NCBI RefSeq assembly: GCF_964355755.1
Contig: NC_092670.1
Span: 32,476,388 to 32,540,387 of the forward strand
Source: Antedon mediterranea
Lineage: Eukaryota; Animalia; Echinodermata
DNA: 64,000 nt
Direction of reading: 5' to 3'
Positions 3,801 through 33,800 of the stretch are shown in pieces. Made by a program: the position numbers and the translations under genes. The first letter of the stretch is position 1, and every line of letters starts with the position of its first letter. The notes beneath the pieces are model-generated. The model saw only the letters and a list, made by a program, of their open reading frames with translations. It did no database searches and was not told the origin of the DNA.

Positions 3801-6800
3801 CTACTTCTGTACAGTATGCAGGCTGAGGTGGTCACTAGCTAGGCCTAGACTATTCAGGCTAGGCTAGCAGGCCTAGCAAGATGTGAGGCCTAACTAGAAA
3901 AGTACAGTATATACAGGCTGTGCGATGTTTAAATAAAGTGTAAAATATAATTGTTTTCTATCAATAAAACAGTCGCTGCTTTAGGGGGAATGCACGTGCG
4001 TAGCTTGTCCCACACACAGCAGAATTCTTCACACAGCCATGATTGTGGCTTTGTGTGCTTTGTTGTTGTTAAATTGCGCCCTCAATGTAAGAAAATGATG
4101 ATGTCATCGGTTATTTTAAGCGTTCGTAAAATCGAGGGAACGTAAAACACAGGTTCTACTGTATTTTGTACGGTATACTATAGTAAGACATCAACCAGTC
4201 AAAACTTACTAGCTTGGAGAAAAAGGTTTATAAGGAAGACCATGCTCTAAAGAGTTGAAAATGATCTTAAATTTTCAACAATTATTACTTTTCTTATTAA
4301 GTTTAATTTCAACATACCAGTCAATGGTGCCTGCCTTTATTTTATCTGTAGGCCACGGGCCCATAGATTCACAATACATTACAGTAAGGTTGACTCTCTC
4401 CTTTTTAACGATACAAATAAATACTTTGACAGATTAACATAAGAATCTGTTAATAACTTTAACTTTGGATAAGAGGTATTACGCCAATAATTAGTACTCA
4501 GTAAGGTTTACCTTTCTGCCTTTCTGGACATACAAGACAAAGGTGATACTGATCTTCTATTTGTTGCCGGTCGCACATTTACTCTAATATTGACATTCAA
4601 GTTGTGTGACATTAGCAATATTGAACAAAAATAATATTGATATTGGAAATGTTTATTCATTGAACAACTATACATTATTTTTCAAGGTAAAAAAAAAAAA
4701 AAATGTAAAAGAGAGAGTTTGTGTGATTGTTCATGATACAACTTTTTTCCTAATTCATGGAATTAAACTGAGAAGATGGTTTTAAACTACATTTGAAACC
4801 CAGGGCATGTATTTTTGCTAATAGTATAGATATAAATATACAGTACTAGTCCAGTCTACAAAATACAAGTAAATTTCACGATTTTCATGTTTTTCTTGAT
4901 TGCCTAGACTTCTCTTTTCCACACTTGGTCCTATAGTACTACATTGGAGTCCATACATTACTTTGTTGAAACTTATGGTTGTTATGTGAATGGAATATAT
5001 AATAAATATTATACAGTATATATATTATTTTAAAGAAACATTTTTGGGAAATTGCAGACTTAAAAAGAGGGTGTCACGAAACCTAAGACCACGAAAGCTA
5101 AGACCCCCTAAGACCTAAGATCACGAAAGCTAAGACCAAAGAACTAAGATTACAAATATTTATCTTTCGCACCTGCCTTGTATCTTAACTCCCAACATTT
5201 ATTCTGAATACCACACCTTTAGAATTAGCACTTTTATGAAAAAGAATCACATTGATGATTTTACAGACGTTTTTCTCGCACACATACTGTTTGCGAATTT
5301 CGCATGACTAGCCTAACAGTACAGTAGGCCTACCCCATGTTCAATGTTTTTGTTTCTATGGAACGTCAAAAGAGCAAAAATTATATAGAGGGCTGTAAAC
5401 TCTGTGGAGTCCATCTACATCAGTGTGGATGGAACAATGTAAAACTAAAATTGTAATGATAATACTTAATAGTATAATCATGCTAGTACAAAAAAATAAA
5501 TACTCGCAAACAAAATTTAATTTAAAAATCATGATAATAAGTTGTTTTGTTTCGTTTTTTTTCTGATTTTATACTTGTACTATTATTGTTGCTCTTTTGG
5601 CGCTCCATAGAAACAAAAACATTGAGCATGGGAGGAGTTACAGTATACAAAGAAACACGTCTGTAAAATCATCAATTTAAAGGATTTATTTATTTGTTTT
5701 TATGTGTTTCTCCTTCTGAAAGTACTTATAAGTCCTAATTTTAAAGTGTGGTATTCAGGATAAAGTTAGTTAACAAATTTGGAGTCAAAATACAAGAAAG
5801 GCAGGTGTGAAAGAAAAACATCCTCTGAACCAACACAATGGAGTAAATATATACCAACAAACAACCCGTCAAGTTTGTTGTGAGTTTATCTATGTTTTGC
5901 GGTAGTATTTAATTATATTTATGGTAATAAATAAAACCTACTATGTTTAAAATTATGTATGGATAAACAAGTATTGTTTTTAAGCTGTAGTATATCTTAG
6001 AATTTGTAATCTTAGTTCTTGGGTCTTAGCTTTCGTGATCTTAGGTCTTAGGGGGTCTTAGCTTTTGTGGTCTTAGGTTTCGTGACACCCCTTAAAAAGA
6101 TTTTACTTTTACATTTATTCATTATCATCATGAGCATTTAATCATCATTATTTTCATTATAATAAATAATTCATTTATACTGTACAATTTATTTCAATCC
6201 ATGCCATGCACTGTTTTTTTTAACTTATGGTATAATTTCTAAGTAATCGTCATCATTGTTACTATATACTTTTTTGCTGTTTAGCTCCATTGTTGTCAAA
6301 TAGTCGTCAACTGTATCATCATATTCATCTATTATTTTCTTTTCTTCACTTGTTTGAGATTCATTGGTGACATCAAAGTTATAACCACAATTAGAATTTG
6401 TAAACTGCCCAAAAGGTTTTTTCATTTTTCTTTTTTTCATTGATTTATGTTCATGATTTTGTGGCTTTTTGCTTAATACTGATTGTCTACTTGTTGAAGG
6501 TTGATCATCATCATCATATGTAATGCTATAATAATATACATCTTCAAGTTGTTCTACTGTAGAGTTATAAGATTCATCATCTGCTTGATTGTCTCTCACT
6601 GTTTCTGTTGGTCTACTTTTCGAAGGTTGATAATCATCATCATCATCATCATCGTGAATGCTATAATACATGTGATCATTTACTATTGTGTCTTTTTTCT
6701 TAAAATGACACATTTCATTTTTTGCTTGAGATATTACTACTTCCATCTGTTTACTGGTTGAAGGTTGATCGTCATCTTTAATACTGTAATAAATTTCATT

Positions 6801-30800: not shown

Positions 30801-33800
30801 TTTTTTATTCTCGTGGGTCTAATCTTTCCATCTCATGTGTTCATACACGCCCATTTTTAAAGTTCCTTTGATTACATGCATATTGTTTGATAATAAAATA
30901 GCAGAATTAAAAAATTTACAGTACACAAATTATACACATTCTTTATTTTTGTGGGTCTAAGCTTTCTTTGGGCTATGTCCAATTACTACTTAGTTGCCTA
31001 GCTGTCGATTAGCCTCGACACATTATGCATAGTGGTGTGTGTGAAGAAGAGTGCGCGAAGGCAATCACGTGAATTGACCTAGAATCCTAGGCCTACTGTA
31101 GAAAGAATTGTATCGCTTGTGTAATCACTTCTTGTTGCTATACGCTTGGGTGCACACGGAACAACAAATTTAACTGAAGAATTATTCATGTTTATTTTGT
31201 GACGTTTCATGAGGGGGTCCCCAACTTATGTACGAAAAAAAAATTGCGAGCAGGTATCCACATGCTCTTTTAAAACATTACACATTTCTAATGCAAAGAT
31301 CGTGGATTACTCTTTTTTTCTGATATATTCTTTGGTACAATTCATAATAATTATCTACAATAATAGTAATATAAGTAATATTGCTGTTGTTCACTTATTC
31401 TGTAAATTCCATATAATAGGGAATGTGTGTAGTTGTAACGTAGTCATCCACTGTATCTCCTAGTTTCTTTTTTTCAACTTTTTGCAATCCGTTTATGGCA
31501 TTGAAGTTGAGACCGTAACATTCATTTGTGAAAACCTCAACGTGGTTTGCAAGCTTTTCATTTTTCTTAAATTTTGATTCTGTTGGTTTTGATCTCACTA
31601 CCCGTTTACTTGTTGAAGGTTGTTCTCCATCTGACCCATTACATTCATTTCGACAGCAGGACTCAAATTTTTCAGTTATTTTTTTAACTTTCAGTTTGGA
31701 CTTGTCCACTGCTTGCTTTGTCCTCACTTGTTTCTTGTCGGCATCTGTTTTCCTTTTTTTGTTTTGTGGAAATTGTTCTTCTATTTGTTGTCTGCTGTTT
31801 GAAGTTTCAATAATGTCTTGGTGACTTCTTTTCCTTTTTGAATGTTCACCGTAGTTTCTTCTAAGAATTATATAGAGTGATAACATGACAACCAACAAAA
31901 GTAAGCAAATTGTCACTATCAATATTATGATGATGACATCATTATCAGAATTTTCTGTACCTTCAGCATCTGCTACTGTGAATTTGATCTCACCTGACTT
32001 GTTTTGAGCTGCAGTAGTTACAAGACACTTGACAGTGTATTCACCAGTAGTTAAGTTATTAAAACATCTTTCATCGTCATTCTCTCCATTGTATCCTGTC
32101 TCCAATAACTGTGATACATCAGAAGTCCAGTGATAATGCTTTGGACCAGATCCACCTGTAGCACGACATTTAAAGCAATATTCACCAACACGGTTTCCAG
32201 GAATTGTCCTCATTTCCAACTTAAGTTCAGGGTAAACATTTAGAATTAATGTATAGCATAATATTCTAGTGTTACCAGTAACTTTTGAAATGCAGTAAAA
32301 GAATATCCCCTCTCCAGCTTGGTGACCTTTAAATATTTGGTTAAAAGAGACCATCTCTCCAGCAGTTATGGGTAAATCAAAAGATTGCATCATGTTATGT
32401 TTTCCTTGTATCCATCCAACTGTTATCTTATGTAGGTCAGTTGGTAGAGTAATACATGTAAAATTGCATGCTATTGTTACTTCCTTTCCCTCTTTGATAT
32501 TTAAATCTTCAAAATCATCACAGACCATTTTCCAGTATTCATAATTAACATTCTCTTTCTGATTGACATTACCGAAAGGAATTGCAAAGTACTTATTACC
32601 TTCATCTTGACAGGTGTATATTCCTACATTTTGCTCTTTGTTGTAAGATATAAAATATTGGCAGTTGACAGTTGCTGACATTTGTAGAAGGCTGAGTACC
32701 TCCATTTCATCATATCTAAATGTCCGAGTCTCTGTTAGTACACCCTGGTACGTTTTATTTGAGCGCAAGATGTCGACGGTATTCTGTGTTTCCACATTGG
32801 TTTCATAACCATAATCAAATTTAACATCCTTTTTTACTGCAGTCACTCTGATTGTTAGTAAACATGTCATAAGACAAAGTTTTTGGAATTCCATAGTTCG
32901 TAAATATTTCAAACTTTTTGAATTTTAGAAATCAAGTTGTCGGTGTGAGCTTCAGTTAATAATGATTTTTTGTTAATGTTATCTGAATTTATTATGTACT
33001 TCTGTGACACGTTTCCTTTTCCTATTGATAATTTAATACAATAGGTTACTGTGTCACCAGGTAGTTGGTGGTGACAACAAAATGTAATTAGTAATATATT
33101 GCTATGCTGCAACTACTGTACAATTAGTGACTACAAAGATAAATTAGGAAACATGTTCAATGTACAGAAATATTGGATTGTCAGTAGTATACATTCCTTA
33201 TTTTGAATTAAACAGCCTGGAGGGTTTTTAGGGGGCGTCAAAGAACTTATAACACAAGAATCTCCTGTTCTTCAATTTGCATTCAAAACACAGTATCGGA
33301 AGTACAGGGTTAAAAGGTCAAACTGGGCGACGCCATTTCACAGCATGGAGCAGCGCCCCCTCCAAACTAGGAAGTCAATTACTCTACCCGCCTAGAGTAT
33401 TAGCAGATCCCCTCTATGATTTTGACTTTCTAATTTGATGCGGGCGCCCTACTCCTCAGTCAATTACTCTATACCCCTAGAGCATTAGCAGAACCCCTCT
33501 ATGATTTTGACTTTCTAATTTGATGCGGGCGCCCTACTCCATGGCTCACAATGGCGCCACCCATAGCTCTATTCTATCCCACAATGCCTTTCGAAATTGT
33601 TACGCGCTTCGGACGAACAGGAGATTCTTGTGTTATAAGTTCTTTGGGGGCGTTTATTCGAGGAAGATGTTTATTGAGGGAGCCATTTATTTTTTTGGGT
33701 GTAACTGTAATATGGTGTACATACTGTATCATCAAATGCCATCAGATATAAAAAAAATACAAAACTAATTCATTTAAAGAGGTGATAAAATAAAAAATTG

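Follow-up and report, generated by a model that had tools for sequence, protein, structure and literature searches.

The window analysed here is a stretch of 64,000 nucleotides (nt) of the crinoid Antedon mediterranea (assembly GCF_964355755.1, contig NC_092670.1, positions 32,476,388 to 32,540,387), in which positions are counted from the first letter. It has the base composition of AT-rich animal DNA and holds eight intronless paralogs (A to H) of a type I receptor with three immunoglobulin (Ig)-like domains (D1 to D3). All are on the minus strand, antisense within one 41-kb intron of an NRAMP/SLC11 gene that itself lies on the plus strand (Table 1), and the coding sequence of each is spanned by a single open reading frame (ORF) from signal peptide to tail. 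Five of the eight are intact (A, D, E, F and H; 437–594 codons) and three are broken (B, C and G). An earlier reading of this DNA (the original prediction) had proposed that recombination shuffles ectodomains and cytoplasmic tails between the paralogs, placing similar recognition modules on different signalling outputs as in vertebrate paired activating and inhibitory receptors. The motifs it relied on were all located where it put them. B was said to end in YFVL; an in-frame TAA at 10698-10700 stops it at 468 amino acids, about 105 codons before the PQYFVL end. The A-type tail assigned to C is present as sequence, but one extra base near 14744 puts it out of frame with the ectodomain: the frameshift precedes the transmembrane (TM) segment, and the frame stops at 14727-14729 to give a predicted secreted product of 289 amino acids without TM or tail. 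The comparisons below concern seven paralogs (A to F and H) from one haplotype.

The membrane and tail modules are of two types. QPSTS, FTN and DxVDDY segments mark type I, found in A, C, E, F and H. Type II, found in B, in D and in an orphan relic, combines a TM rich in Thr with a single IYYTI motif and a 15-nt minisatellite, and ends in PxYFV. In blastp comparisons of the parts past D3, A-C, A-E, C-E, B-D and E-F-H are joined, but type I is not joined to type II (E>0.5). A single membrane-proximal [EDNK]IYYxI motif is common to both types, and YxxPhi motifs occur in all seven tails. With published motif patterns (10.1101/2022.03.04.482883), we found neither an immunoreceptor tyrosine-based activation motif (ITAM) nor a strict hemITAM in any of the seven tails, and no K, R, D or E in the core of any of the seven TM segments (in D, a K sits at the outer edge). 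The consensus of the immunoreceptor tyrosine-based inhibition motif (ITIM) is found only in A and H, both type I, and is absent from B, C and D; A and C end in the loosely hemITAM-like NDDDYLEI and NDDGYSEI. The signalling motifs do not divide the tails into an activating and an inhibitory type. The tails could reasonably be expected to signal through SH2 proteins; that the two types have opposite outputs would be conjecture.

Table 1. Features of the receptor cluster in the window (ITSM, immunoreceptor tyrosine-based switch motif).
Feature	Positions	Strand	Description
NRAMP/SLC11 intron enclosing the entire cluster	3178..44180	+	GT after 3177, AG before 44181
Paralog A, intact, 544 aa	6225..7859	-	Signal peptide, three Ig-like domains, TM 6936-7028
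Paralog A tail	within 6225..7859	-	Type I, acidic; three YYSI-acidic-QPS units; terminal DDDYLEI
Paralog B, stopped early	10365..12104	-	C-like ectodomain; type II (D-like) stalk, TM and tail; 15-nt EDGNR minisatellite
B side of putative B/C homogenised tract	11259..12234	-	From ~130 nt upstream of ATG to last strand of D3
Paralog C, frameshifted	14177..15596	-	B-like ectodomain; type I (A-like) TM and tail
C side of putative B/C homogenised tract	14748..15754	-	3' breakpoint 14748-14756, ~10 nt from frameshift
Orphan type II tail	17154..20335	-	Decayed EDGNR array ending PHYFVFEL, then D-like 3' flank
Putative flank relics of deleted copies	20346..25883	-	Flank matches
C-type 3' flank relics	20346-21095, 23693-23860, 25142-25587	-	Flank matches
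B-type upstream flank relic	22666-23020	-	Flank match
A/C-type upstream flank relic	25668-25883	-	Flank match
Paralog D, intact, 594 aa	26127..27911	-	Type II tail, ~37-unit EDGNR array in frame, PHYFVLEF end
Paralog E, intact, 499 aa	31395..32894	-	E/F/H clade throughout; tail keeps QPSTSK, FTNEC, DTVDDY
D3-TM-juxtamembrane block, ~95% identical in E, F and H	E 31749..32210; F 35496-35963; H 41761-42348	-	Sequence identity
Paralog F, intact, 437 aa	35340..36653	-	Type I tail, short; ITSM-like motif TEYQEL
Fragment G, truncated duplicate of F	37585..38037	-	Limited to signal peptide and D1
Paralog H, intact, 522 aa	41449..43017	-	Type I tail with ITIM consensus SEYQEL; stalk of Thr-rich 21-nt repeats

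B and C do carry closely similar ectodomains on different tails, as had been proposed. Their identity is 80% in amino acids and 87% in nucleotides over D1-D3 (251 codons, with exact tracts of 34–63 nt) and 30% and 47% past D3 (98 codons). In the quartet A/B/C/D, the 735 ectodomain sites include 45 that support BC|AD, 10 BA|CD and 9 BD|CA, and the 279 sites past D3 include 4, 6 and 50, respectively (Fisher p 2e-16 for the switch). The best breakpoint falls at alignment columns 333-335, i.e., in the last strand or at the end of D3 (11259-11267 in B), and none of 10000 permutations gave an equally strong one. Third positions alone show the same switch (15 vs 5, then 0 vs 22; p 2e-7), and the approximately unbiased (AU) test rejects the grouping (B,D) at p=0.039 when the ectodomain is pooled and (B,C) at p=3e-5 in the segment past D3. 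The distance between B and C rises from 0.13 in the ectodomain to 0.99 past D3, and their synonymous difference from 0.21 to 0.72. The similarity extends beyond the coding sequence: the proximal 200 nt upstream are common to B and C (score 83 vs 27–41 for the other pairs among A to D), and a second junction lies ~130 nt before the ATG; farther upstream, the flank of C matches A and that of B does not. Because there are two junctions, gene conversion would fit better than a single unequal crossover. Smaller shared patches link C with D (30 and 34 nt in D1) and A with C (32 nt in D3).

The D2 of C also contains a perfect inverted duplication of ~24 nt (15120-15185), which adds 27 nt in frame (nine residues, YWIHPTVII) and is likely a repair scar. 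The indications on the direction of transfer between B and C point both ways. Equal distances of B and D in head and tail, outgroup quartets leaning to D (25–30 vs 17–24) and the scar in C suggest C as the recipient; a synonymous difference between A and C of 0.35 in the ectodomain against 0.49 past D3 (p=0.049) suggests B.

The stretch from B to C is present in five sequencing runs, three of which were compared as contigs: X1 and X3 are from one sample, possibly the assembly's own, and X5 from another sample and study. Contigs of X1 and X3 span the 3' junction of B (10930-11348) and that of C including the frameshift (14043-14837) with no differences. In X5, a B-like contig across 10930-11558 has 58 other letters and 12 gap letters, and a C-like contig across 14043-14971 has 15 and 32. 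The B-like contig of X5 is without the 63-nt tract identical in B and C here, and at the nine sites (11240-11460) where B and C together differ from A and D it has the A/D letter at four, a third letter at one and no listed difference at four, as far as 40 of the 115 rows of differences show. This suggests that the latest B/C tract differs between individuals. The contig may also represent another paralog, since it is about 9% different from B when neighbouring X5 contigs differ by 1–2%.

Several points weigh against exchange between B and C as the source of this pattern. Of the single domains, D2 alone rejects (B,D) (AU p=0.30 for D1 and 0.13 for D3), and the bootstrap of the pooled (B,C) grouping is just 77. 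The poor alignment of type I with type II tails inflates the number of BD|CA sites counted past D3. Few informative sites are strictly synonymous (5/1/1 in the ectodomain and 0/1/0 past D3), the set is small (seven paralogs, one haplotype), and both genes involved are damaged in this haplotype, B by its stop and C by its frameshift. Short parts of C (14418-14460 and 14877-14915) are matched by contigs of X1 and X5 that then continue in sequence absent from the window (2–5 mismatches at best in 16–20 nt), which suggests that the genome holds more members of the family, the true donors possibly among them. The function of the receptors, finally, is inferred from architecture and analogy.

The other two proposed chimeras fared differently. 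D was expected to combine its own ectodomain with a B-type tail. It does carry this tail, but its distance to B is 0.41 in the ectodomain and 0.42 past D3, so that D alone gives no evidence of a swap. E was thought to join an F/H-type D3 and TM to an A/C-type tail end. The motifs are indeed shared, but the tail of E is collinear with those of H and F up to the stop, H having lost QPSTSK through a 27-nt deletion. In a tree of the distal tail (174 nt), ((A,C),(E,(F,H))), E groups with F and H with a bootstrap of 100, and the AU test rejects E+C (p=0.0005) and E+A (p=0.0004). We therefore rejected E as a head-tail chimera: the tails of A, C, E, F and H are one homologous sequence, an outcome that the original prediction had itself named as contrary to its proposal. 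The QPSTSK, FTNEC and DTVDDY segments shared by E with A and C are best read as ancestral retentions that F and H lost or changed. Counting against this, among seven scored 60-nt windows E is clearly closer to C (identity 0.73–0.75) than to H (0.51–0.68) in two and about equally close in a third, and a short, old C-like patch in the tail of E is possible. Trees of separate segments, the check that had been suggested, are thus incongruent for B and C at the end of D3, whereas E stays within the E/F/H clade in every segment; recombination pairing similar heads with different tails is supported in the group of A, B, C and D but not for E.

E, F and H show a pattern that the original prediction had overlooked. 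Their synonymous differences are 0.42–0.50 in D1-D2 and 0.03–0.07 in the block formed by D3, the TM and the juxtamembrane tail (p<=2e-8), where exact shared tracts reach 98 nt. Outside this block the sequences have diverged, both in the flanks (71–84%) and in the distal tails (68% nt between E and H). Here the base has apparently been homogenised while the heads above it differ, a pattern opposite to that of B and C. Read from the sequences, the proposed shuffling is partly confirmed: one head-tail swap is real (B/C), one is rejected (E), one is uninformative (D), and the reverse pattern in E/F/H comes in addition.

The stalk of H is lengthened by a 21-nt repeat (TTQTSPL, 41983-42103), likely an O-glycosylated spacer that would raise the ectodomain further off the membrane. 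G was copied from F recently and is truncated (36225-36915 vs 37609-38333); the upstream flanks of the two are identical at 251 of 256 positions. Codons 27-79 of D1 differ between F and G at ~15% of sites, compared with 2–4% around them, a patch that could come from another paralog or from diversifying selection; a test for positive selection within it was not significant (pN 0.157, pS 0.127, p=0.79; proportions of nonsynonymous and synonymous differences).

Type I and type II genes alternate along the array, and the spacers hold traces of further copies. No ectodomain was found upstream of the orphan type II tail, whose EDGNR array is split by an insertion at 17584-19130; the lower part of the insertion (17583-18271) consists of 194-nt units in a long palindromic array. 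The flank relics between this tail and D contain no coding remnant detectable by tblastx. We infer that the region from A to D may have been a unit of one type II and one type I gene repeated about four times, the middle copies of which would have been deleted down to their flanks and one orphan tail.

The canonical Ig pattern comprises a Cys in strand B, a Trp in strand C and (D)xGxYxC in strand F. D2 has the Cys, the Trp and GIFFYC in all seven paralogs. D1, the least canonical of the three domains, has GI(H/Y)TC, which aligns to DAGIYRC of NCAM2, and no Trp in strand C; D3 is similar to PKD-like repeats. No Pfam family scored above its curated cut-off in any of the seven proteins (best I-set, E 0.0014, 19.1 bits vs a cut-off of 23.7). 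The ectodomain was modelled by AlphaFold2 (AF2) as three beta-sandwich domains, with a predicted local distance difference test score (pLDDT) of 75.7, and the best structural matches found by Foldseek were CD22 (domains 1-3), LAG3 and FcgRI, but also fibronectin type III (FN3) proteins (E ~1e-5; 9–14% identity). A profile match to NCAM2 (E 2e-6) and weak matches to Atlas Ig clusters (0.89–0.91) were also obtained. In this model the ectodomain has the tandem beta-sandwiches of the Ig superfamily; D1 folded alone reached a pLDDT of 70, with no structural match at E<=0.001. Across the pooled ectodomain, pN is lower than pS in all 21 pairs of paralogs.

Relatives are scarce. A search with E alone returned only E itself (one of 6519 candidates), and a family profile retained two of 2201 candidates at near lengths and one of 5935 at longer lengths, the latter a PKD/Ig-repeat protein. 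Among the 150 representative profile matches listed (sources looked up for ten, five sequences examined), P0003 and P0024 are the only family-like ones besides E. P0003 is XP_071957072.1, an uncharacterized protein of A. mediterranea that matches positions 60-267 of the profile (E 1.7e-52) and is 40% identical to D over 217 amino acids. It spans most of the ectodomain and is the sole named relative of the full family among the matches listed; unlike the paralogs of the cluster, it is annotated with 249 amino acids and has no signal peptide, TM or tail. Since only E of the seven paralogs was returned by protein searches, protein catalogues probably lack most of the cluster.

We consider it probable that these genes are a tandem, intronless family of three-Ig receptors with tyrosine-motif tails in which gene conversion homogenised the ectodomains of B and C and so left similar heads on unlike membrane and tail parts. 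Conversion tracts would arise between neighbouring copies, within a single exon, and among A to D would stop where the homology between type I and type II tails ends; a breakpoint at a domain boundary therefore requires no selection. In E/F/H, conversion would keep the D3-TM-juxtamembrane block constant while D1-D2 diverge. The proteins may be fast-turnover recognition receptors, in immunity or in self/non-self recognition, whose signals pass from phosphorylated YxxI/L motifs to SH2 proteins, in which case conversion would re-pair ligand specificity with signalling output.

The mosaicism could also be a by-product, without functional consequence, of an unstable tandem array in decay, where homology alone drives conversion and deletion; the relics, like B, C and G, would then be pseudogenes. 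The three broken paralogs, the orphan tail, the flank relics of further lost copies, the closeness of the frameshift of C to the breakpoint (~10 nt) and a ratio of pN to pS of about 1 between F and G (0.072 vs 0.074) would all fit such decay. We nevertheless deem it unlikely: five of the eight genes are intact over their whole lengths, pN is well below pS between B and C (0.09 vs 0.21), and a B-like head on a type II tail was found in a second sample. D moreover keeps its 600-nt minisatellite in frame, with no frame-breaking spacing among 20 anchors compared with five among 93 in the orphan array, although these numbers are small.

Somewhat less probable still is that the cluster encodes true paired receptors, as the original prediction held by analogy. 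In such systems the inhibitory member has an ITIM and the activating member an ITAM or a charged TM residue. Here, type I receptors (A and C) would activate through their hemITAM-like ends and type II receptors (B and D) would inhibit or dampen, selection keeping the heads of B and C alike for the same ligand. The alternation of the two types along the array and the loose hemITAM fit of A and C are in line with this, as are ectodomains that are 0.13–0.50 apart among A to D when type I and type II differ by 0.99–1.49 past D3, which suggests repeated homogenisation. A tract running from the upstream region through the ectodomain is also the sequence pattern described for SIGLEC11/16 (PMC5701461). 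The motifs speak otherwise and give the analogy no positive support: strict hemITAMs, ITAMs and charged TM core residues are absent from all seven proteins, B and D have no ITIM while the ITIM matches sit in type I tails, and the one membrane-proximal motif is common to both types. C has no TM in this haplotype, B is truncated, and the tract ends are accounted for by the loss of homology. Equally doubtful, to our mind, is the fuller scenario of a paired-receptor system evolved by crinoids in single-exon genes, with hemITAM-like type I and minisatellite-built, acidic type II tails alternating on a shared Ig head kept by ongoing, individually differing conversion, a frameshift at a tract end that yields a secreted decoy, and in E/F/H the reverse design of variable head and constant base; if true, it would mean an independent origin of activating/inhibitory receptor pairing in echinoderms. 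That no exchange took place, the type II tail and the E/F/H block reflecting rate differences or convergent selection and the chimeras assembly misjoins, is very improbable: tails of such receptors do evolve fast and assemblers can collapse near-identical tracts, but synonymous and third-position sites switch likewise, a change of rate cannot explain why B shares 45 sites with C up to the end of D3 and 50 with D beyond it, and contigs (X1/X3, perhaps from the assembly's own sample) span the 3' junctions of B and C unchanged.

Conversion between neighbouring genes, our preferred explanation, has parallels in several animals. SIGLEC11/16 is the closest, and SIGLEC5/14 and CD300A/C are reportedly further analogues alongside it. 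Paired receptors have significant ectodomain homology, and gene conversion maintains this similarity over different TM and tail parts (PMC5701461). B and C share such homology, below the near-identity of human SIGLEC11/16 (PMC5701461), and conversion, as indicated by their two junctions, would have maintained it over different TM and tail. They resemble SIGLEC11/SIGLEC16 as adjacent Ig-domain genes in which conversion homogenised the upstream region and ectodomain, and C may be similar to SIGLEC16P, the non-functional allele of the partner (PMC5701461). Neither B nor C has an ITIM or ITAM, and they are not both intact membrane receptors, the frameshift of C before its TM being seen in the X1/X3 contigs as well. 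Opposite signalling and co-expression were shown for SIGLEC11/16 (PMC5701461); for B and C both would be conjectural. Unlike the primate paired Siglecs, it has no ITAM or charged TM residue, its entire coding sequences lie in one exon, and it has no close sequence kinship with them (9–14% identity in fold matches).

Among invertebrate deuterostomes, the Botryllus FF/FcoR clusters are described as diversifying by intergenic recombination that mixes ectodomains and intracellular domains, with acidic-aliphatic-YxxI/L cores, ITIMs and hemITAMs in the tails (10.1101/2024.10.16.618699). Incongruence between ectodomain and intracellular trees is found here too, and the cluster works alike without being a member: FF are multi-exon Sushi-domain proteins, to which FcoR are related (10.1101/2024.10.16.618699), whereas the present family is Ig-fold, intronless and devoid of strict hemITAMs, and no Sushi (fester-type) domain matched any of the seven proteins at E<=1. 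A role in allorecognition would be conjectural for the cluster here. Hydractinia Alr genes are likewise clustered and lineage-restricted, encode unusual type I proteins of the Ig superfamily with one to three Ig-like domains and tyrosine-motif tails, and include pseudogenes; Alr12A/B are >90% alike except in domain 1, resembling the mosaicism of E/F/H (10.1101/2022.03.04.482883). In Alr, each Ig-like domain, spacer and TM has its own exon, mosaicism is termed exon shuffling and fourteen tails have ITAMs (10.1101/2022.03.04.482883); the genes here have no introns and no ITAM. In ruminant CEACAM32, as in E/F/H, conversion is reported to affect some parts of the paralogs while Ig-like recognition domains stay distinct, but the converted parts are the leader exon and introns (PMC7042247) rather than D3, the TM and the juxtamembrane tail.

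The cluster thus works like SIGLEC11/16, FF/FcoR and Alr but belongs to none of them, because the motif hallmarks of pairing are missing and gene structure and ectodomain differ. We found no published description of this family, of its single-exon form or of such head-tail mixing or pairing in an echinoderm, in a search that mostly excluded subscription journals. The mechanism is known, head-tail mixing having been described in vertebrates, Botryllus and Hydractinia, whereas the family, its single-exon form and the two opposite patterns within one cluster appear new. In a cluster of intronless genes such as this one, conversion can be told apart from exon shuffling, and both arrangements stand side by side here: one head shared by different tails, and one base shared by different heads. 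The genes are also concrete candidates for receptors of crinoid immunity or self-recognition.

The NRAMP/SLC11 family has been linked to metal transport in phagocytes, and regulation of the receptor cluster shared with the surrounding gene is a possibility only. Of the four exon pieces of the spliced host gene, three match the Pfam Nramp family, including exons downstream of the intron; the fourth, upstream of the intron that bears the cluster, has no Pfam match, and we take it to belong to NRAMP from its DPGN motif. Two short, high-copy dispersed repeats occupy the spacer between B and C (12886-13211 and 13864-14189), with summed contig depths thousands of times those of the flanks. A later NRAMP intron holds direct repeats at 55346-55653 and 62210-62503 (92% alike), which bound what we take, from motif labels, to be a Ty3/Gypsy-like long terminal repeat (LTR) retrotransposon (55346-62503) with reverse transcriptase, RNase H and integrase-like ORFs at 58273-60716; a PHD-finger-like ORF lies within it (57508-57858). 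An endonuclease ORF at 62967-63998 and a C-terminal fragment at 49704-50117 are, again by motif labels, presumably derived from long interspersed nuclear element (LINE)-like elements.

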